From: a virus
Virus record (IMG/VR): IMGVR_UViG_3300045988_122031
Location: 29,757-93,756 of that record
Direction: 5' to 3' (one strand)
DNA length: 64,000 nt
The translations under genes were made by a program, and so were the position numbers. Positions 1,015 to 53,893 of this stretch are shown one piece after another. The notes beneath the pieces are model-generated. The model was not told the DNA's origin. It searched no databases and saw only the letters and a program-made list of their open reading frames with translations. Position 1 is the stretch's first letter. Each line of letters starts with the position of its first letter.

Positions 1015-1100
1015 ATAATTTTTGGATTTTCCTTTTCTTGTTTATATTGTTTAGTTAATTATTTTAATTTGTGTTTTCTATGTCTTTCAGTAACTGCCAA

Positions 1101-1739
1101 TTACTTCACTACATATATTTTTCTGTGCTGCTGCACATTTACTGTTTCGGAATGTGTTGATTTGAACACGTCTACATGCATTCCTTTTACTTTGCCTCCA
1201 CAATCTTCTGCCACAAAGATTGTATCGCCATATCCATCAATCTTAACTCTTGTTCCATAAGGGATAATGTTTTTATCAACCGCAATCGTATGATACGGTC
1301 GAGCAAATTTATGTCCTGCATGATTCCAAGAAATCTTAGATCCATATCCTTCAGAACACTCATAACATGGACAATATGCCGTGATCAAAAATGTTCCAAG
1401 CGAACTCTTTTCAAGTTCTCGCTTTCGCTTCAGCCGCTGTCGTTTAATTCGCAATCGTTTCTTTCGCAGTTTTTCTAATCGAATCTGTCTTGCTTGCTCT
1501 TCATCCGCTTTCTTACATTTCTGATAATGCTCATGAACATCTTTTAATGCAACGCTTTGGCTGATTGGATTGTCTGAAATCACATTGCCTTGCTTATTTT
1601 CTGCAACAGTTGTCTCTGTTGATAAGGTTGAAGCCTCTACCGAGGGTCGCTCCTCTGCTTTAACCGTGTGAGTCATAAAGCCCGAACACATTGCTAAAAA
1701 ACTAAACGAGACAACTTTCATTAAAAATCTTTTTCTCAT
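1101..1739 (-). CDS. Secreted 3D-domain (MltA/YuiC-like) cell-wall-binding/lytic protein with a Lys/Arg-rich coiled coil
   Basis: Signal-peptide-like N-terminus (MRKRFLMKVVSFSFLAMCSG). C-terminal ITAYCPCYECSEGYG...AVD...IPYGT...IDGYG...AEDCGGKVKG matches the 3D-domain pattern. RBS GGAAAGGAG lies 6 nt before the ATG at 1739; the track start at 1763 is probably too early. Confidence 0.6.
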   Translation of the reverse strand: MRKRFLMKVVSFSFLAMCSGFMTHTVKAEERPSVEASTLSTETTVAENKQGNVISDNPISQSVALKDVHEHYQKCKKADEEQARQIRLEKLRKKRLRIKRQRLKRKRELEKSSLGTFLITAYCPCYECSEGYGSKISWNHAGHKFARPYHTIAVDKNIIPYGTRVKIDGYGDTIFVAEDCGGKVKGMHVDVFKSTHSETVNVQQHRKIYVVK

Positions 1740-4617: not shown

Positions 4618-7600
4618 TTATACTAATTCCTCCTCTGCGTCATTTTTAATAGTGAAATTCTTAAGCCAAAACTCAAATTTATCTAGTACATCTTTGTAGA
4701 TTTTCTTTCCTGTTTTTGTATTGATCTCCCCAGTTGGTTCTTTTTTATGTTTCTTCTCAACTGATTTCAGATATAGAATATCTCCTTCATCGAATGGGTT
4801 CTTCTTATATTGGGTTGTCCACATTTTTACTTTCTGTGTTTTTCCAGAGTAAATTTCATATAACTGAATGTTAACGATGGATTTTTTAACATCAAGATCT
4901 GAAACATAATATAATCTTTTATTAACTTTTACGTTAGCATAGCTTACAATTCCGAGAACATTTCTCTGATTGTCTAATTTTTCTTTCAAAGACAATTCTC
5001 TGTATGGAATATTTTTTATAGATTCAATAAGTAATTGTTCTGAATCTAATTGATTATAAAGTGTTTTTGTCTCATGACCATACTTCAAAAGTAAATCAGA
5101 AGAAATGTGATATTCTATCGCTTTTTCTTTGGACAATTGCTTTTTCCCATTTAATAATTCATAATATTTAACTGTTTCTAATAAGGTATTCGCATCTCCG
5201 AACTCTACAAAATAATTAATTTTAATTAATTTGTCTATCACTGTTTTATTGAGATGATTCTGCTTTAATACATTGATCACTTCTATGAATGAGCTGTATT
5301 TAGCCTGTCCTAAATCATATAGTGAATTGGCGACACCTTCTCCAAATCCTTTAATACTTGATAAATTGGGATATATAATTTTATGTTCTTCATCAATCGT
5401 GACTTTTCTATTGTCTGCTCCAAACCGATAATCTCCCAATTTATATCCCCAAAATTTAATGGCTTCTTTTACTAGGGCATCAATTTTATCTTTCTTATTT
5501 TTTTCTTGGTAATGATTAATTGCTACTTCATAGAACATTTTCGTATAATGAGCTTTAAACCATGCCTGATAAGCAGAATCCTCAGCCATCGACCAAGCAT
5601 GCGGAGAGTTGAAGGCGTACGAAGCTGATGAGTCTATAACTTCCCATATATTATTGAAATTATTAAGTTCTCCAATTTCGATTTGCCAACCATCTTTTAA
5701 TCTTTCTTTCAGTTCTTTTAACTTTTCAGGATGGGCTTTATATTTTTTTTTCGAGATATTTTTAATAACTCCATACGTTTCGCCCATCTTCAATTGCAGG
5801 AAAGATAATACCTTCATAATTGACTCTTGATAAATCATAAAATGTGCTGTATCTTGCAACAACTCATCAATTTTCTTTTCGCCTGTTGAATATGGTTCAC
5901 GATTTAAGAAAGTATTTAATAAAGATGCAAATCCTGGTCTGATTGCAGCAATGAAACTACTTAATTCTGCTAAATTTTGTGGCTTATATTTCTTTGCTCT
6001 ATTTGTTGTCGCTTCTTTTTCACATTGGTTAACACAACAAGTAATTCCTTTTGCATAAATATCCCATGTTTTATGATCTCCTTCTATCATCTCTCTCAAT
6101 TCTTCAGATGTAGGAACCTCCATTTCTATACTATGAAAAAATTTATATGTAAGATAAACACTATCTACAATAAGAAAATCTTCTTTTACATATCCAAATT
6201 CATCAAGATAACCACCTTCAATGGCGGCACAAATCGTTCTTTTCCCAGTCGTTTCTGAAACAGCACTAATTAATCCTACTTCTCTACGAATATCTCCGTC
6301 GAATATAAAATGCCCACAAGCATGTACTTTTAGATTGATAGTAATTCCTTGATATTCGTTGCTTTGTTTAAATAAATCAACGTATTCTTCTGGAATATAA
6401 TCTTCAACATGAATAAAATCTTTATCTTCTTCATCAGCATATTTTAATGCTTTATTATAGTCATCAAGATATTTTGAAATTCTGTTTGCATCTTCTGGAC
6501 TAACATCGTTAGCTCCAGCATATAATTGCCATGCTGCTTTCTCTTTTAACTTTTCTATAGCCATTAACGGATAACATCCATGCTCTCCAAGAAGTTTTTT
6601 TGCAGCTTTCACAAATGGTTCCTGAGTAGCTACATTGAGGTCAATATCTGGCATCTGACCTGCTAAAACACGGTCTTTTGTTAAAAAGCGTTCTGGATAA
6701 ATAGGAATATCTGCATTGAATCTATCTACCGTTGTTAATCCTAGCAACTTATTTGTAATGAATGATGCAGCGCTACCTCTTGACGTAGTAGTTAATATTC
6801 CACCTTCGCAATTTACTGCATCATCTACAATTGCTTTACTTGTTAAAAAGTAATCTACAACTCCTGAATCCATGACTTGTTTTGCTTCATACCTAATTCC
6901 ATCTGCTTTTTCTTTTGATTTTTCTTTTTCTTTAGCATAGGCTTTGTTTAATATTTTCTTATAAATAGCACATTTACCTTCATATGTTTTATCTTTATGA
7001 ACGCTTGGAATTTTAAATTTTCTGTCAAAAACAATTTCTTCGCATTCTGACATGAACACGTTTGTGTTCATAATAGCAGTTAAGACTTCTTCATCAGAAA
7101 GAACTCCTTGCTCTTGAAATCGCTCTATAACCGTTGTTGTGTCTGGATAATCCATATACCATCCAAATTCTTCTGGATATTCAATATGCTTGTACTTTAA
7201 AATCTGATCCCTTTTTACTGCCGTCTTATCATCAATGTAATGACTATCAAGCCCACAAATGATCTGAATATTGTGTTCTTTTGCAAGTTTTAAGATTTTT
7301 CTGTTAAGTCTTTTTTGTGGATCAGTATTATGAGCCTGCACTTCTAAAAAGAAATTATCGCCAAAATAGTCATGTATTTTTAACCAAATGTCCTCTGCAT
7401 CTTTATAATGCCAACCAGATAAGCAAGCTGATGTAACAATTACATTCTCTTTTGGAATATTAAAAAGTAATTCTAAGTCAATTCTGGGTTTGTAATAATA
7501 TCCATCAATATTTGCCATAGAAAGGGCGAAGTTAATATCTTCTCTCCCTTCAGCATTTTTCGCAAGTATCATCATATGACAGTTTGCTTTGTCTTTTTCT

Positions 7601-7917: not shown

Positions 7918-9533
7918 CCCACCTCTTCAAGTGAATCACACACTGCTTTCAGCACAAACTTTCTGCCAAAGAATCCACAATCAAGAGTAGTTACAGCACA
8001 AAATTCATCATTCATCATAGAGTGGTCTTCCATATCCTCAAATGATCCATCGTAGTTCCATTTAATGATCCACAATTTATCATTGTTACATGGTTTCAGG
8101 ACAAGATGTTTATAATTGCTCATCTGACCAATGTCATAGTCGTCAATCTCTTCAATATAAACTCTTACAGGTTTAAATCCTTGTCCAGAAATACGATCAA
8201 TTTTCTTAATCATGTCAACCATTTTTCTTGTGATGTCTGAAATATCAAGCATAATATCGACATCAACTGTTGTATCTTCTGGCTTATCTGGAAGAGTTTC
8301 TTCTATATAAGAGGTGAACTCAGCGAAGTTCTTTCTAGGAATTTCAATACCACTGGCAAGTTCATGCCCATTTGCTTCAGCCAACTGACTGTTATTACAC
8401 ATCTGTCGGAAGTCTTTTACACCAACTGCTCGCATAGATCCTGCATATGTATCTTCATTTTTCTTTAGCACAAGAATCGGCTTCTGGTATGTTTCAAGCA
8501 ATTTGTTTCCAATTAACCCAGAAATACCATAATCAGTGTCGATAAAAGTTGTGATCATCTTTTTATCACTCTGAGCTTCACACTGTTCCGCAATCATTGG
8601 CATCAGCTGTGCGACCTCTTCATTTTGGTCTTCTTTGCATTGCTTTAACTGTTTAATATATCCTCGTAACTTTTTATTGTCATCTTCAAGGAAAGCATTT
8701 AGAGCAATTTCATTCTGATCCATTCTGTTTGCAGCATTAACCAACGGTGCAATACTAAAAGCAACTGCTGTGCTGTTGAATTCAAATCCACCAATAATCT
8801 TCTTAATCGCAGGATTTCTAATTTCTTTCAAAGCTTCGGATACAATGTAACGATTCTCCATTACTCTCATATCCATCATATCTGCAATCAGCCCAACGCC
8901 TGCTAGATCGACCAAATCACCTGCATAATCTGTACCATTCTGCTCATCAATATACTTGCAAAACTTCCAAACAACACCTGCGCCAGATAGCTGTGGATTT
9001 TCATATTCTCTCTGAGAAGAAACTAATGTGCAATAGTTGTCATAAGGAACATCTGGATCGATGGCATGGTGATCTAACACAATCACATCAACTCCTGTTT
9101 CTTTCAAATCTTTATACTGAGCCTCATCCTTATCTAAACTATCAACGACAATTAGTAAATCATAACCATAAAACTTAGCGATGTCCTGATGTACTAATCC
9201 ATGCTGTTTGCCTCGGTTAATGTATACATCTACTGGATTTTCTGTCATGTTTTTTAAATATCGTGTCATAATGGCACCAGATGTGATTCCGTCAGTATCT
9301 GTATCAAAATGTACTGCAATACGTTTATCTTTATATACTGCATCTCTCAAAAGTCCGTATGCTTTATCAATATTTTTTAAGTCATCAAGAGGAAGTAAAT
9401 CATCTTCCGTAGGATTTAGAAAATGTTCTGGATCATCAATACCACGCTCCTGCATGATAATTTCAAATACCTCATCTTCAAAAAGTCCTCTGCAATCGTT
9501 CAAAATATTATATTTCTTCTTCGACGTCTTCAT
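7914..9533 (-). CDS. recJ: RecJ-like DHH-family single-stranded DNA exonuclease
   Basis: GIDDPEHFLNP...LLPLDDL...RIAVHFDTDTDGITSGAIM...LLIVVDSLDKD...VIVLDHHA reproduces the DHH motifs I-IV in RecJ order. Confidence 0.75.
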   Translation of the reverse strand: MKTSKKKYNILNDCRGLFEDEVFEIIMQERGIDDPEHFLNPTEDDLLPLDDLKNIDKAYGLLRDAVYKDKRIAVHFDTDTDGITSGAIMTRYLKNMTENPVDVYINRGKQHGLVHQDIAKFYGYDLLIVVDSLDKDEAQYKDLKETGVDVIVLDHHAIDPDVPYDNYCTLVSSQREYENPQLSGAGVVWKFCKYIDEQNGTDYAGDLVDLAGVGLIADMMDMRVMENRYIVSEALKEIRNPAIKKIIGGFEFNSTAVAFSIAPLVNAANRMDQNEIALNAFLEDDNKKLRGYIKQLKQCKEDQNEEVAQLMPMIAEQCEAQSDKKMITTFIDTDYGISGLIGNKLLETYQKPILVLKKNEDTYAGSMRAVGVKDFRQMCNNSQLAEANGHELASGIEIPRKNFAEFTSYIEETLPDKPEDTTVDVDIMLDISDITRKMVDMIKKIDRISGQGFKPVRVYIEEIDDYDIGQMSNYKHLVLKPCNNDKLWIIKWNYDGSFEDMEDHSMMNDEFCAVTTLDCGFFGRKFVLKAVCDSLEEVG

Positions 9534-15133: not shown

Positions 15134-15304
15134 TAAATAGAATTCCTCCTCTTGTTATTAAATTTGTTTAGTTAGTTTTTAGTTTGTAAATAAGTCATCA
15201 ATTTATATCCACTGTCAACTCTGCCAAAGTCAACAGGAACAAAAAATAATTTTATCTGATCGGCTTATATTGTTATAATCGTTCTATTACATTTATAACA
15301 AATG

Positions 15305-15346
15305 CGTCAAAAAAATAATAAAAGTTGTTTGCGTTATTCAACTTTT
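15305..15346 (-). terminator. Rho-independent terminator after the sigma factor gene
   Basis: On the minus strand AAAAGTTG-(11 nt)-CAACTTTT is followed by AUUAUUUUUUUGA. Confidence 0.55.
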
Positions 15347-15887
15347 ATAATCTGGAAAATGTTGTTGATCGCATTTTTTTAATCTTTTGTTGTATCGCTT
15401 GAAATGATGTACCAAACATTTTTGCAATTTCTTGATATGTATAACCTTTTGATTTTAAATCAACAATCATTCTGTCCTTATTATTTAGTGTGTAACATTT
15501 ATCTTGAAAATTCAACTTGAAAATAATATTTTTTTCAAAATTTTCTTCATCCTTTAAAAAAAATGAATTTTCATTTTTGTCTTCATCCCAATCATCTAAC
15601 ATATGATTATATGAAATAGTATTCATATCACCCTTTCTTCTCTGCCGAAATCTGTATTTGTTATATACCGTTATTTCATTTTGTATACATAAATACGCAT
15701 ATGTCGAAAATGATTTAGATCGTGTTTTATCATAATCAATTGCTGCCTTACACAACCCAATAGCAGCGAATCCATAATAGTCATCAAAATCTTGTCTGCG
15801 GACACCGCATTTTGTCATAGCAGAGTAAATCAAATTATGATTTTGTTCTACCAATTTTCTCTGTTCGTCATTTAATTTCAACGACAT
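15345..15887 (-). CDS. Phage sigma-70 family RNA polymerase sigma factor (regions 2 and 4)
   Basis: MSLKLNDEQRKLVEQNHNLIYSAM...GLCKAAIDYD (region 2) and YTYQEIAKMFGTSFQAIQQKIKKM (region 4 HTH). It is a paralog of 21909..22460. Confidence 0.75.
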   Translation of the reverse strand: MSLKLNDEQRKLVEQNHNLIYSAMTKCGVRRQDFDDYYGFAAIGLCKAAIDYDKTRSKSFSTYAYLCIQNEITVYNKYRFRQRRKGDMNTISYNHMLDDWDEDKNENSFFLKDEENFEKNIIFKLNFQDKCYTLNNKDRMIVDLKSKGYTYQEIAKMFGTSFQAIQQKIKKMRSTTFSRL

Positions 15888-41939: not shown

Positions 41940-42151
41940 TTGACGAACATGTTTAGAATTGTTATAATGATTTTAAGGATATTATTATCCTTTCAGATTA
42001 AACAATTCTAAATATCAAATTCGATTTTCTATCGTGCTGCCAACACGGTAGATTCAAAAAATCTTTTTTTGTTATCTATGATTTGTTTAGTTGAAATTTT
42101 TAGTTTGTGTGAAAGTAGAAGTTTTACCAAAGACTTCTGCTTTCTTTTTTA
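41940..42151 (+). ncRNA. Candidate plus-strand small RNA, from a consensus promoter to a strong intrinsic terminator (about 175 nt)
   Basis: TTGACG (41940-45), 17-bp spacer, extended -10 TGtTATAAT (41960-68). 5' hairpin AAGGATAttatTATCCTT. Terminator GAAAGTAGAAGT-(10 nt)-ACTTCTGCTTTC + TTTTTTATT (42111-42151). No RBS-preceded ORF in the transcript. Confidence 0.5.
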
Positions 42152-42452
42152 TTGTCTGTATTTTTATTCCAACATTGTATCTCTCTTTGTATGTAAATTG
42201 CAGGCATTTGATTATGTCAAATATGTCGTCCTGCCTAATATGAGAGAACAAATTCTCATCTTGAATAAATTCGATCCAATGATATGAAAGATCTTTATCT
42301 TTGCCATAGATCTTCATCTTTCTATCATCTGCTCGAATCTTATATTCACTCAGAAACCACGATGACATTTCTGATGAGTGTAAATCAAGTACATCAATAT
42401 GCATTTGATTTGATTGATTCGCTGCTAACATTTCTAATATTTGATTGTCCAT
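42087..42452 (-). CDS. Hypothetical protein (the 3' end is antisense to the candidate sRNA)
   Basis: 121-aa ORF. Confidence 0.5.
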   Translation of the reverse strand: MDNQILEMLAANQSNQMHIDVLDLHSSEMSSWFLSEYKIRADDRKMKIYGKDKDLSYHWIEFIQDENLFSHIRQDDIFDIIKCLQFTYKERYNVGIKIQTIKKKAEVFGKTSTFTQTKNFN

Positions 42453-43996: not shown

Positions 43997-44034
43997 AATA
44001 TACCATACTTTTTGCACCCTGTCAATAGGTGCAA
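43997..44034 (-). promoter_or_regulatory. Copy 2 of the palindromic promoter element (TTGACA-17-TATATT inside TTGCACC-N10-GGTGCAA)
   Basis: Minus strand reads tTGCACCTATTGACAGGGTGCAAaaagtatggTATATT, immediately upstream of the MazF-like gene. It is about 45 bp conserved with 1770-1810. Confidence 0.55.
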
Positions 44035-46158: not shown

Positions 46159-46491
46159 TTACACTCTCTTAATTACTTTTTCTATTTCCTGTGCCAACAG
46201 AAAATCATTTATTGCATTTTCATCGTCAGTAATCAATGTATATTTCCATACTGGGGAACCATGATATGATATATCTTCAACCTTAAATAATGCTCTTTTA
46301 CCAGTGTTATTTTCTCTATGATCTGACTCCAATAACTCTGTATGAATTCCCCAACTATCATATAGATGTCCATCGTATAGTATTTGAGCCGCAGCTATTA
46401 ATATATTATATTTACTCACATCAACCTCTGTATTCACTGTTCCGTATAATTTCATTGTTCCAATCTCCTCTCTAATTATTGCACTGTTCAC
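46159..46491 (-). CDS. Hypothetical protein
   Basis: 110-aa ORF. Confidence 0.5.
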   Translation of the reverse strand: MNSAIIREEIGTMKLYGTVNTEVDVSKYNILIAAAQILYDGHLYDSWGIHTELLESDHRENNTGKRALFKVEDISYHGSPVWKYTLITDDENAINDFLLAQEIEKVIKRV

Positions 46492-53334: not shown

Positions 53335-53560
53335 TCTTTACCTTCCTTTCTAAATTTCCTTATTTTTCTCTACACTCATTATTTTTGTATAGTTATATTC
53401 CGTAAACCAATAGGAATAAAATCAACATTTAATTCCAACTATTAGTGTGCCAATCCTAATAGAAACCTATTCTATTCCTATTAGTTCTCTATATAATCAA
53501 CACCTTACCTATTAACAATTCTATGCTTAGTTAATCATTAATTTGTGTATAATAAATTTG
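53335..53560. repeat. Iteron-like repeat cluster (CCTATT/AATAGG and CTATTAG/CTAATAG units, TTCCGT units): regulatory hub or candidate origin
   Basis: ccAATAGGaat, aaCTATTAGtg, tcCTAATAGaa, aCCTATTctattCCTATTAGtt and taCCTATTAAc, all within about 120 bp. They lie between two transcription modules. Confidence 0.45.
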
Positions 53561-53636
53561 ACAAAGAACCGACCTGCCAAATCGGTTCCTGCCAAATATT
53601 TCCGTAAAATAAAAAGAACCTTCCGTTCGGTTCTTT
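53552..53636 (-). terminator. Tandem Rho-independent terminators ending the upstream minus-strand module
   Basis: On the minus strand AAAGAACC-(8 nt)-GGTTCTTT + UUAUUUU, then GAACCGA-(9 nt)-TCGGTTC + UUUGUCAAAUUUAUU. Confidence 0.6.
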
Positions 53637-53656
53637 GCCAAAATTATTATATGGAA

Positions 53657-53893
53657 TTATTTAATAAATGCCGTTCCTATTTTTATAATAAACCAAGTCC
53701 ATAAAATAATAGTAGTTGGTTTATCAATAACTCCTATTGTATCATCTAGTAAGTCAGTATATTTCTTTAAGTTTGTATTGTAATATTCATCAATTAATTT
53801 CAGAGCTGCATTAACAATAAAAACAATAGTCTCTAATGTAATCATTACTCCTACAAATACATCTGAATACCGAATAATCTGTTCTAATTCCAT
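53657..53893 (-). CDS. Small membrane protein
   Basis: Two hydrophobic segments. Confidence 0.45.
   Translation of the reverse strand: MELEQIIRYSDVFVGVMITLETIVFIVNAALKLIDEYYNTNLKKYTDLLDDTIGVIDKPTTIILWTWFIIKIGTAFIK

Follow-up and report, generated by a model that had tools for sequence, protein, structure and literature searches.

Does a short stretch of phage DNA that opens with a near-consensus promoter and closes with a strong terminator encode a functional RNA, and if so, on what would that RNA act? We studied this locus within a 64-kb stretch of DNA, hereafter called the window. On the plus strand, a sigma-A/sigma-70-type promoter (41940–41968) consists of a -35 element TTGACG (41940–41945), a 17-nt spacer, and the extended -10 element TGtTATAAT (41960–41968). 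The preliminary description had placed it among the best promoter matches of the window, and our own scan of both strands over all 64 kb agreed: with a score of 11/12 plus the TG, TTGACG-17-TGtTATAAT shared the top rank. Promoter-like matches as a class were not enriched (31 found versus 33 expected), so the weight of this promoter lies in its rank and its conservation; the pattern TTGAC(G/T)-17-TGTTATAAT was identical across all lineages examined. From its position, transcription would start at approximately 41975. Both an own promoter and an own Rho-independent terminator were present on one strand, which is what an independent unit should have. These features describe a self-contained unit from 41975 to ~42150 (plus strand) with a predicted structured transcript, very probably a ~176-nt non-coding RNA gene, previously undescribed, of a common uncultured human-gut phage. 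The plus strand of the window also holds a 72-aa HTH gene with its own promoter (29979–30197), so the window is not exclusively minus-stranded.

All elements of the predicted transcript lie on the plus strand. At its 5' end is hairpin P1 (41975–41992; AAGGAUA-UUAU-UAUCCUU), exactly where a 5' hairpin had been noticed before. Its stem covaries, with the variants AAGGGUA/UACCCUU, AAGGAC/GUCCUU, and AGGGU/ACCCU in relatives, and in two lineages (L120 and L121) the hairpin is 31 nt longer. The single-stranded stretch ss1 that follows (41997–42014; AUUAAACAAUUCUAAAUA) is unpaired in the consensus fold and has a nearly invariant core, ACAAUUC(U/A)AAA. Hairpin P2 (42028–42052) combines a 9-bp stem (42028–42036 with 42044–42052) with an invariant 7-nt loop, CUGCCAA (42037–42043). 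The A/U-rich linker downstream (42053–42110) is variable, shows 9-nt indels, all in frame, in the part shared with the final codons of the convergent gene gp121, and in lineage L298 bears an additional hairpin with the loop AUGCCAAA. The unit ends in P3 (42111–42150), an intrinsic terminator with a 13–15-bp stem and a U6 tract; the stem spans 42111–42144, forms as many as 15 pairs, and immediately precedes T6 in the DNA. P3 was the top terminator-like site within 39–45 kb, in keeping with the strong U-tract terminator first described. For its loop, most lineages have (U)UGCCAAA and the window has UUACCAAA; it varies, with ACCAA in the commonest variant and AUCAA, GUCAA, or UCCAA in others. The 177-nt interval folded to -49.7 kcal/mol on the plus strand (z = -6.75) and to -39.0 kcal/mol on the minus strand (z = -5.6).

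The comparison set comprised ~190 metagenomic copies from at least seven lineages of a ~160-kb Herelleviridae-like human-gut phage. This phage group is frequent in human-gut metagenomes, one flanking-protein cluster having 712 member sequences. The pairing of P1, P2, and P3 was kept in 98.8% of the cells of the comparison, versus 43–53% when the partners were slid, and double compensatory changes occurred at 12 of 28 pairs, a value attained by 0 of 500 shuffles. In P2, seven of nine pairs showed double compensatory changes and 99.4% of cells were paired; in P3, 99.6% were paired. The changes also discriminated between the strands. G:U occurred at eleven pair positions, where the minus strand would have A:C; a series A:U → G:U → G:C and several other G:U pairs in P3, as well as a U:G pair in P2, are valid on the plus strand only. 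The loop-proximal P2 stem (at least 5 pairs) was unbroken on the plus strand at 152 loci and on the minus strand at only 21. The P2 loop CUGCCAA did not differ among the 38 distinct sequences, nor in L298, and since the stem covaries while the loop stays fixed, this loop appears to be the functional part of the RNA.

Conservation of the unit was set against that of its surroundings. The promoter stayed invariant in lineages whose flanking proteins were down to 40–74% identity, and nucleotide identity was 70–92% for the RNA unit versus 65–85% for neighboring genes. The terminator, like the promoter, was conserved in all lineages examined; loss of either would have counted against the preliminary description, which had also proposed a search for conserved structure in related phages, and that search yielded the three covarying hairpins. 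Its central claim, that a small RNA is encoded on the plus strand between this promoter and terminator, is thus strongly backed by the invariant promoter, the covarying hairpins, and the plus-strand-specific G:U pairs. What is confirmed here are the sequence elements, their conservation, the covariation, and the strand, from which expression of the RNA is presumed.

The locus also contains an extended imperfect palindrome centered on the P1 loop (41949–42016), with core arms TTAGAATTGT (41953–41962) and ACAATTCTAA (42002–42011). Its left arm is the promoter spacer and its right arm is ss1. The palindrome was present in all lineages, persisted around the 31-nt-longer P1 of L120 and L121, and in L114 changed in both arms together. 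Such conservation, with co-varying arms, would suit a locus that makes no functional RNA and serves instead as a DNA element, for example a replication origin, a cruciform, a palindromic operator, or a recombinase site whose 7-bp core is shared. An inversion polymorphism of the kind usual in DNA hairpins was seen in the P1 loop, there are two integrase-like genes in the vicinity, and an unchanging 7-bp core flanked by inverted repeats has a superficial likeness to the core sites of recombination. We nevertheless consider a DNA element extremely improbable. The G:U-type changes preserve pairing on a single strand, the plus strand for P2 and P3 and the minus strand for the UUGGCAG hairpins described below, and strand-limited changes of this kind point to RNA and away from DNA or protein recognition. 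No sequence is common to the arms of the UUGGCAG sites, so that one recombinase could not bind them all, and the palindrome motif was found once in the window. As a general phage promoter or operator motif, TTAGAATTGT was rejected, with 12 matches versus 12.6 expected and exact copies only at this locus. A replication origin was ruled against by the absence of a GC-skew inflection at the locus, and an invertible promoter or tyrosine-recombinase core by the single orientation of all ~190 copies (0 inverted) and by the segment between the repeats, which is only ~39 bp.

The preliminary description had seen no RBS-preceded ORF in the interval. This proved correct; in addition, no ORF was conserved among relatives, and the sole ATG (42079) was lost in many of them (ATG → ATT). 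Rfam gave 0 matches at gathering thresholds, its permissive matches reaching at most 18 bits against cut-offs of 35–100 bits. No DNA relatives among cultured phages were found by near or distant search. Pattern scans returned the same family and chance matches only from IMG/VR, the same family only from metagenomes, and one bacterial rpsF promoter, with no RNA, from genomes. A literature search did not find an earlier description of this RNA.

Convergent with the RNA lies gp121 (42087–42452, minus strand), a gene without functional assignment whose last 65 nt traverse P3. The overlap, already recognized in the preliminary description, consists of the terminator plus 24 nt and nothing more. The gp121 protein had no match in Pfam, PHROG, PADLOC, or PDB; its AlphaFold model (pLDDT 47) was too poor for structure search, and its tail is predicted to be disordered in this low-confidence model. 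In L114 the same nucleotides are read in a different frame, giving the gp121 tail KKENRSLWQDSYL rather than KKKAEVFGKTSTF, and in L120 the ORF ends earlier, yet the nucleotides of the P3 hairpin were retained in both lineages. Because the tail is shifted or truncated while the hairpin is kept, the gp121 ORF seems simply to extend into the RNA gene, and the overlap looks incidental. An antisense action on the 3' end of gp121 therefore found no support as the function of the RNA, the overlapped segment not being a conserved functional target of the OOP type.

A cis effect could still arise from transcripts that pass beyond gp121. A consensus promoter of the convergent operon (MazF-like gene, gp342, gp121) was located at 43997–44025 (minus strand) by the promoter scan. 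No minus-strand terminator was detected in the scan between gp121 and gp216, so operon transcripts probably read into the RNA gene. The RNA would be fully complementary to this read-through toward gp216 and may exert a secondary effect in cis. In the strictest form of this idea the RNA is purely cis-acting, like lambda OOP, and its only partners are minus-strand transcripts from the locus itself, namely the 3' end of the operon mRNA and any read-through that reaches gp216. In that case gp216 and the genes downstream would be uncoupled from the early operon, either by cleavage of the duplex or by transcriptional interference between head-on polymerases. The convergent layout with its 65-nt overlap, the consensus promoter that drives the operon, and the expected read-through are all consistent with such a role. 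Moreover, gp216 has no visible conserved promoter, and the RNA stays with the gp121 side even where gp216 is replaced (L298). UUGG, from the complement of the P2 loop, fits the YUNR U-turn motif, which also counts for cis pairing. Perfect complementarity in cis, however, leaves the loop unconstrained, yet CUGCCAA is invariant while most of the stem pairs around it change. At the protein level, gp121 can do without the overlapped tail, and the recurrence of the exact complement of the loop in hairpins elsewhere is left without explanation. We therefore judge it unlikely that action in cis is the sole function of the RNA; a cis effect probably coexists with a role in trans.

The location of the RNA at the edge of a MazF-like island had suggested an antisense or antitoxin role. 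We found no positive evidence for it; the RNA sits 1.4 kb downstream of the MazF-like gene, two genes away and on the opposite strand. If the RNA were the antitoxin for the phage's MazF-like endoribonuclease, or a regulator of it, it might bind the enzyme or act as a decoy (type III-like), or it might mask UUGGCA-containing mRNA loops from cleavage. The order MazF-like gene, gp342, gp121, RNA is constant in every lineage, the MazF-like gene has its own consensus promoter with no recognizable MazE gene upstream, and toxins of the ToxN type, which have a related fold, are inhibited by RNA. Nonetheless, we regard this role as highly improbable. The RNA contains no tandem repeats, which, with its position downstream of the MazF-like gene on the opposite strand, does not agree with a type III (ToxIN-like) system. 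A type I system is contradicted by the lack of any small (<~60 aa) hydrophobic toxin ORF opposite the RNA, the only overlapping genes being the soluble 121-aa gp121 and a 33-aa TTG ORF without an RBS. The MazF-like variant and the RNA always co-occur, but this is uninformative because the variant was found only in the phage group that bears the RNA. Furthermore, UUGGCA was not depleted on the sense strand (32 copies versus 14 on the other strand), and PADLOC gave 0 matches.

UUGGCAG, the exact complement of the P2 loop, occurs at seven sense-strand sites outside the RNA locus. The search for these sites covered 64 kb of the ~160-kb genome and was post hoc, but the 7-mer was preset by the P2 loop. 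Three of the seven sites are exact 7-nt hairpin loops, two of them on 9–10-bp stems, against a background of ~1% of positions in such loops. For hairpin-loop presentation, TTGGCAG ranked first among 2,178 7-mers of similar frequency, and among the 51 hairpins whose stems reach 8 bp or more, two carried UUGGCAG. Two features expected of a kissing-loop RNA were thus found together: a conserved apical loop on a freely varying stem (P2) and complementary loops presented on target hairpins above chance.

The first candidate target, T2 (AGGAACCGAU-UUGGCAG-GUCGGUUCUU; 53564–53590, minus strand), is located in a 300-nt leader between a 78-aa gene and a 364-aa Bro-N gene. Within 190 nt this leader contains three more copies of UUGGCA, and the clustering of four TTGGCA copies in 190 nt has p = 0.0035. 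The T2 loop was kept while its stem changed in L295 and L298; no repeats of the leader were found elsewhere. The second candidate (CUGUUGACU-UUGGCAG-AGUUGACAG; 15212–15236, minus strand) precedes gp412 by 88 nt and follows the phage sigma-factor gene. It was conserved in the close family, where the changes A:U → G:U and U:G → C:G keep pairing on the minus strand only, and phage groups without the RNA also lacked this hairpin (at 15227). A weaker candidate, AGUAA-UUGGCAG-UUACU (1089–1105, minus strand), is placed at the stop codon of a peptidase gene. Two looser candidates were also noted on the minus strand. One, with an 8-bp stem and the 11-nt loop CUUUGGCAGAA (7953–7979), falls within the 3' end of a RecJ-like gene, ~50 nt before the start codon of the DNA polymerase gene. 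The other (AUUUUCUG-UUGGCA-CAGGAAAU; 46184–46205) lies inside the 3' end of a 110-aa gene, upstream of an integrase-like gene, and was identical in L104–L106, L116, and L117.

The loop of the RNA and those of the targets were both invariant wherever both could be read (the window, the close family, and L298), and compensatory change between the partners is for that reason not observable. No complementarity extended beyond the loops, and in a duplex scan of the RNA against all translation-start regions the best energies fell within background. In the energy model, U.G and U:A pairs can form within UUGGCAG, which reduces the open loop to a GGC triloop. A match over 10 nt between ss1 and 53515–53524, a sequence that resembles a -10-like box, was rejected as a contact; half of the close family lacks it, and the RNA shows no change that would compensate. 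TTGGCA was likewise rejected as the -35 box of a phage promoter class, there being no common -10 element at a fixed distance.

The conserved loop might alternatively be recognized by a protein. The RNA would then be a decoy or sponge, with UGCCAA loops in P2, often in P3, and in the extra L298 hairpin, for a partner of host or phage origin; in one variant it would mimic an anticodon stem-loop and divert an anticodon nuclease or a tRNA-binding factor. We take C-U-GCC-A-A to fit Y32-U33-NNN-R37-A38 of tRNA-Gly(GCC), which gives the P2 loop the format of an anticodon loop, and the UUGCCAA of many P3 loops presumably equals the loop of bacterial tRNA-Gly(GCC). Besides this format of an invariant 7-nt loop, the repetition of the loop core in two to three hairpins of one RNA and an aberrant tRNA-like gene in the phage speak for protein binding. 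On the other hand, ~1 in 16 random 7-nt loops match the anticodon format, the P2 stem has 8–9 bp instead of 5, and the P3 loop is variable. Protein binding does not predict complementary loops on the sense strand, and no candidate binding protein was found. On balance, we find this explanation improbable.

We consider a trans-acting sRNA that recognizes its targets by kissing loops to be the best explanation of the locus, and we hold it with moderate confidence. The loop complementarity was computed; from the sequence features we infer expression of the RNA, the kissing interaction, and its outcome. According to this model, host RNA polymerase would transcribe the RNA from the consensus extended -10 promoter, and because the promoter serves the host enzyme, the RNA is probably made early. 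Transcription would stop at P3, the RNA's own intrinsic terminator, and P1 probably stabilizes the RNA from its 5' end. P2 would display CUGCCAA as the recognition loop, and the RNA would act in trans on the phage's own sense-strand transcripts by forming 7-bp loop-loop (kissing) complexes with hairpins whose loops are UUGGCAG. The P3 loop and the extra L298 hairpin share the UGCCAA core and may assist binding, although binding through several loops is doubtful because the P3 loop is not conserved, reading ACCAA in its commonest variant. The candidate targets are the Bro-N leader (53564–53590), the region upstream of gp412 (15212–15236), and the end of the peptidase gene (1089–1105), with 7953–7979 and 46184–46205 as further possibilities. 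The complexes may alter termination, processing, or stability of the target transcripts, for example via RNase III. Two conserved features, ss1 (the most conserved linear segment) and the extended palindrome, fall outside the kissing-loop model.

We propose more tentatively that one early RNA is a hub whose single 7-nt loop kisses hairpins in the untranslated regions of several phage operons and coordinates their termination or stability. The operons concerned would be those of the Bro-N leader and of the region after the sigma-factor gene, with the transcripts for DNA polymerase and lysis enzymes as possible additions; together they would make up an sRNA regulon internal to the phage. As a more speculative extension, pairing might shield UUGGCA loops from the phage MazF-like RNase and so link the RNA to the toxin module.

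Comparison with known systems places the RNA as a new family of an already known kind of regulator. Lambda OOP is a 77-nt RNA that acts in cis on cII only. Like the RNA described here, it is a short phage RNA with a host-type promoter and an intrinsic terminator that is convergent with a gene and overlaps its last ~50–65 nt, and in both cases the duplex would expose the mRNA to RNase III. The RNA reported here differs in its length of ~176 nt, its three covarying hairpins, its invariant loop with partners elsewhere, and the dispensable tail that it overlaps. The c4 RNA of P1/P7 and sar of P22 are phage small RNAs that control an antirepressor operon (immI); in c4, short loop sequences recognize complementary sites in the target leader, and the RNA is processed from the transcript of its own target. 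The phages that carry c4 and sar are temperate phages of enterobacteria. Similarly, our strongest candidate target is the leader of a Bro-N (antirepressor-like) gene, and Bro-N/ANT genes also flank the RNA gene in relatives. In contrast to c4 and sar, this RNA is equipped with a promoter and a terminator of its own, is encoded 11.5 kb away from the candidate target, has several candidates, belongs to a Herelleviridae-like phage, and shows no sequence or Rfam relationship to them.

Kissing through fully complementary 6–7-nt loops, with stems free to vary, is also known from ColE1 RNA I/RNA II and R1 CopA/CopT. Those RNAs are cis-encoded, which makes the complementarity of their loops inevitable, and their pairing goes on to form a long duplex, whereas the partners proposed here are at separate loci and the match is confined to the loops. 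In the pairs RatA/txpA, SR4/bsrG, and par RNA II/fst, convergent RNAs overlap the 3' end of the partner with their 3' region or terminator. Many Firmicute type I antitoxin RNAs are found on phages or prophages, and the partner is a small hydrophobic toxin peptide. At the locus studied here, in contrast, gp121 is soluble and has 121 aa, its overlapped tail is unconserved, and a small toxin ORF is absent.

Loop-loop interactions of the RNAIII type followed by RNase III cleavage have been described in Gram-positive bacteria, in a paper that also mentions txpA (PMC3328962). Staphylococcus aureus RNAIII and other multi-hairpin Firmicute sRNAs present a conserved loop motif on variable stems to hairpin loops of several target mRNAs, and RNase III acts on the complexes (PMC3328962), an arrangement that is predicted for the phage RNA. 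The loops of RNAIII, however, are C-rich (UCCC) and pair with Shine-Dalgarno sequences, whereas CUGCCAA would pair with target loops that are not ribosome-binding sites; RNAIII is bacterial, and the RNA here is phage-encoded. Highly transcribed non-coding regions have been reported in the Listeria P100-like phage CKA15, a member of Herelleviridae (PMC12282133). These loci, like ours, are candidate non-coding RNAs with promoters and without ribosome-binding sites in a large virulent Firmicute phage (PMC12282133). The CKA15 loci are expressed and are without canonical terminators, a structure model, or targets, whereas the present locus offers a structure, a terminator, and candidate targets, all predicted from sequence.

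To our knowledge, hardly any regulatory RNAs are known from virulent Firmicute phages, and fewer still from uncultured gut phages. The locus described here is a well-delimited candidate, for which a promoter, a covarying structure, a terminator, a recognition loop, and individual candidate target hairpins can be named. Should the cis effect alone prove true, the locus would still add a new family of RNAs of Rfam grade and a worked example of how the tail of an ORF enters a convergent RNA gene. If the kissing-loop network is true, it would mean that a lytic phage times several of its own operons through one sRNA, and it would supply a compact, portable loop-loop module.

The proposed RNA gene (the sRNA) occupies the plus strand from 41975 to ~42150. 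It is preceded by a -35 element, TTGACG (41940-41945), a 17-nt spacer and an extended -10 element, TGtTATAAT (41960-41968), opens with the hairpin AAGGATA-TTAT-TATCCTT (P1, 41975-41992) and closes with a long G:U-containing hairpin followed by T6 (P3, 42111-42144); the promoter, 5' hairpin and terminator claimed in the preliminary description are all present at these positions. When the whole window was scanned on both strands, this promoter had the joint top score, confirming its place among the best matches there, and its terminator was the strongest terminator-like site within 39-45 kb. On the plus strand, the 177-nt interval had a fold energy of -49.7 kcal/mol (z = -6.75), compared with -39.0 on the minus strand. 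No Rfam family matched the sRNA, and the transcript's sole ATG (42079) lacks a ribosome-binding site and is ATT in many relatives, in agreement with the earlier statement that the interval lacks an RBS-preceded ORF.

Every ORF of at least 90 aa in the window is on the minus strand. Plus-strand units are rare, not unique: a 72-aa XRE/HTH-like ORF (29979-30197) is also plus-stranded, and its promoter, TTTACA-17-TGnTACAAT (29944-29972), is divergent from a minus-strand promoter, TTGACA-17-TATATT (29912-29884), an arrangement (29884-30197) that resembles a cro/cI-type switch within an otherwise minus-stranded block. Close by, a minus-strand tRNA-like gene (30238-30376) scored 42.5 bits with the Rfam tRNA model and was not called by ARAGORN; it retains intact acceptor, D and T arms, and 82 A/U-rich nt replace the 15-nt anticodon arm, so that it could be an intron-containing tRNA, a disrupted tRNA or a tRNA-like RNA. 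Because the phage has its own sigma factor gene (15345-15887, minus strand; PHROG 351, E = 5e-20), consensus host-type promoters, that of the sRNA included, likely mark early genes. The sole genome match to the promoter pattern, at 6169-6197 of an Acutalibacteraceae MAG (L185, JAZNOE010000021.1), is the promoter of the bacterial rpsF-ssb-rpsR operon, TTGACAAACAGGTTTTGAATTGTTATAAT, which has 16 nt of spacer and -10 in common with the phage promoter version of lineage L114. This likeness could be chance, or a hint that the phage copies a strong host promoter and has an Oscillospirales host.

We gathered ~190 copies of the locus, comprising a close family (92-100% identical) and distant lineages found through homologs of the flanking proteins, in which gp121 (the convergent minus-strand gene, 42087-42452) and its operon partners gp342 and MazF-like are only 40-74% identical to the proteins of the window. 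The sRNA unit was present in the gap after the gp121 homolog in every lineage examined, with a nucleotide identity of 70-92% compared with 65-85% for the adjacent genes. By the preliminary description, lack of conservation of promoter and terminator in relatives would speak against the RNA; the promoter was unchanged across lineages (TTGAC(G/T)-17-TGTTATAAT), and the terminator hairpin belongs to the consensus fold. The structure-conservation scan that it proposed, run with RNAalifold on 20 distinct sequences, yielded a covarying consensus of three hairpins, P1, P2 (42028-42052) and P3, from which the long-range pairing of the single-sequence fold was absent. Standard pairs were formed in 98.8% of cells, compared with 43-53% when partners were slid by 1-3 columns, and both sides had changed in 12 of the 28 pairs, a number reached by 0 of 500 shuffles and by none of the slid controls (maximum 3). 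In P2, 7 of 9 pairs covaried, as in the stem versions CTATCGTG/CACGGTAG, CTGGTGTG/CACACCAG and GTTATTGAG/TTCAATAAC, and with a further version, TTTATTGCTTGTA/TACACAATAAA, in lineage L298. Among near-identical relatives, the stretch 41982-41996 is variable: the P1 loop reads TTAT or its reverse complement ATAA, and the next four bases, TCAG, are often ATCT. These variants are a small hairpin-loop inversion polymorphism.

At eleven pair positions G:U or U:G is used in some or most sequences, each of which becomes an A:C mismatch on the minus strand; one P3 position is A:U in the window, G:U in L120 and G:C in L121. On the plus strand, 152 loci have an uninterrupted P2 stem (at least 5 pairs) next to the loop; on the minus strand, just 21 do. 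Since the G:U pairs and the uninterrupted stem hold on the plus strand, the structure is selected on that strand, consistent with the promoter and the U-tract. Judged from sequence, the locus is very probably a real sRNA gene.

The antisense relationship proposed earlier stands as an overlap, with P3 lying inside the last 65 nt of gp121, and is not supported as the function by comparison. One extra base in an A/T tract frameshifts the gene in L114, where P3 encodes KKENRSLWQDSYL instead of KKKAEVFGKTSTF, and an insertion in the P3 loop of L120 ends the ORF early. The covarying P3 positions are synonymous sites of gp121, as read from the lineage sequences, and the gp121 tail is predicted, in a low-confidence model, to be disordered. 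The altered tails and the synonymous placement of the covariation argue that the constraint on the overlap acts on RNA, and the overlap itself appears incidental, the result of an ORF that extends into a convergent RNA gene.

A consensus promoter on the minus strand (44025-43997), the other joint-top site of the promoter scan, stands in front of the MazF-like gene and drives MazF-like, gp342 and gp121. It belongs to one of two near-identical ~50-nt cassettes (44012-44034 and 1785-1807, both minus strand), ahead of the MazF-like operon and a peptidase gene, respectively, with the -35 TTGACA within the loop of a palindrome, TTGCACCT-ATTGACA-GGGTGCAA; this suggests a common operator and co-regulation of the two. 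A scan found no minus-strand terminator ahead of gp216, the next gene downstream, and no conserved gp216 promoter was visible. Early transcripts would thus probably meet the sRNA gene head-on, and because of this read-through an OOP-like cis effect is also likely. A longer imperfect palindrome (41949-42016) has P1 at its tip. The promoter spacer and -10 region form its left arm (core TTAGAATTGT), and ss1, the single-stranded stretch 41997-42014, forms its right arm (core ACAATTCTAA). The palindrome is retained in all lineages: both arms are altered together in L114 (TTTGAATTGT/ACAATTCAAA), and it persists in L120 and L121 around a P1 enlarged by 31 nt. Since the inferred transcription start is downstream of the left arm, pairing between the arms would be limited to DNA or to minus-strand read-through RNA; in the latter, the palindrome may serve as an RNase III site before gp216. 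Its fold energies had no strand bias, and the motif did not recur in the window. In L298, a Bro-N/ANT gene replaces the gp216 homolog and the sRNA gene is still attached to the gp121 homolog.

An antitoxin role at the MazF-like island had also been suggested. In its anatomy the locus fits neither a type I nor a type III system; it has the 3'-overlap geometry of Firmicute type I antitoxins but lacks their toxin. Since the MazF-like variant is restricted to the same phage group as the sRNA, their co-occurrence is uninformative, and we regard this role as very improbable. The same accessory region of relatives carries classical type II pairs, HicA/HicB, RelE/HTH and Phd/YoeB (L295 7647-8313; L296 7076-7742; L298 7907-8553 and 10581-11090), the Phd/YoeB pair of L298, with its own consensus promoter, being inserted between the conserved leader described below and the Bro-N gene.

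The P2 loop, CUGCCAA (42037-42043), sits on a variable stem and is the same in L298 and in each of the 38 distinct sequences. The sense (minus) strand of the window has eight copies of the loop's complement, UUGGCAG, including the locus itself. On that strand, the exact 7-nt loop is displayed by T2, a 10-bp hairpin (53564-53590) in the leader of a 364-aa Bro-N gene; by a 9-bp hairpin (15212-15236) 88 nt upstream of gp412, directly past the sigma-factor gene and its terminator; and by a 5-bp hairpin at the peptidase stop codon (1089-1105). An 8-bp stem with an 11-nt loop (7953-7979) precedes the DNA polymerase start codon by ~50 nt, and another with the loop UUGGCA (46184-46205) lies within the 3' end of a 110-aa gene. 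Only ~1% of minus-strand positions form 7-nt loops on stems of at least 5 bp; UUGGCAG occupies 2 of the 51 such hairpins with stems of at least 8 bp; among 2,178 7-mers with 6-10 minus-strand copies each, TTGGCAG alone is such a loop three times; and the Bro-N leader holds four TTGGCA copies inside 190 nt (p = 0.0035, random placement). Given these controls, the recurrence is not chance.

The T2 loop stays constant in L295, L296 and L298, on a stem that changes (GAACCGA/UCGGUUC to AGAAUCG/CGAUUCU). The 15212-15236 hairpin is kept in the close family by A:U to G:U and U:G to C:G changes that save pairing only on the minus strand; it is missing from more distant phage groups with gp412 55-62% identical, where a pattern scan likewise found no sRNA copies. 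In more distant gut phage groups (L315-L372), a different conserved, apparently structured element, GGGTGG...CAGCATACCCTTGGG...GTTCCGTCC...GGGCGTT, takes that position, ~60-150 nt upstream of gp412 homologs, and may be another RNA. The intergenic leader housing T2 (300 nt, 53335-53660, minus strand) is strongly structured (z = -4.6), has no Rfam family, and is ~87-91% identical in L295/L296 and 76% in L298, a conservation above that of its flanking genes (only 63-81% identity in these three for the 78-aa protein next to it); it also holds a terminator (53613-53636), a long hairpin containing AUUGGCAC and a long-range inverted repeat of 27 bp.

The candidate targets behave as mirror images of P2: the plus strand is where the regulator is optimised, the minus strand is where its partners are, and the loops alone are fixed. 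Fixed loops on variable stems are the pattern expected of loop-loop recognition such as that of RNAIII-type regulators, and the pattern is also that of ColE1 RNA I/II and P1 c4. In the proposed mechanism, the P2 loop would pair loop-to-loop with UUGGCAG hairpins of phage transcripts, a mode of action to which we give an even chance. Because the P2 and target loops are both invariant, covariation across partners cannot be observed, and the thermodynamic model can reduce the UUGGCAG loop to a GGC triloop. The P3 loop has the core UGCCAAA in many lineages and ACCAA in the commonest variant, that of the window, and L298 has an extra hairpin with the loop AUGCCAAA. The most conserved linear stretch, ss1 (ACAAUUCUAAAUA), is without an assigned partner; a 10-nt match near T2 was rejected as it is not conserved. 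A duplex scan of the sRNA against translation-start regions gave nothing above background.

Near and distant searches found no cultured phage sharing DNA with the region. A 689-aa DUF8224 protein encoded nearby has ~57% identity to proteins from Bacillus Bastille-like phages and from a Clostridioides phage, and the relatives are 140-170 kb contigs from human-gut metagenomes; the carrier is therefore an uncultured phage, Herelleviridae-like and infecting a gut Firmicute. Lambda OOP is the nearest known parallel in architecture; P1/P7 c4, which controls an antirepressor operon through its loops, and RNAIII-type kissing regulators are nearest in proposed mode of action. In Gram-positive bacteria, RNAIII-type regulation proceeds by loop-loop recognition (PMC3328962), and Herelleviridae are already suspected of encoding non-coding RNAs (PMC12282133). 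No RNA resembling this one was found described in the literature; the sRNA represents a new family within a known class of element.
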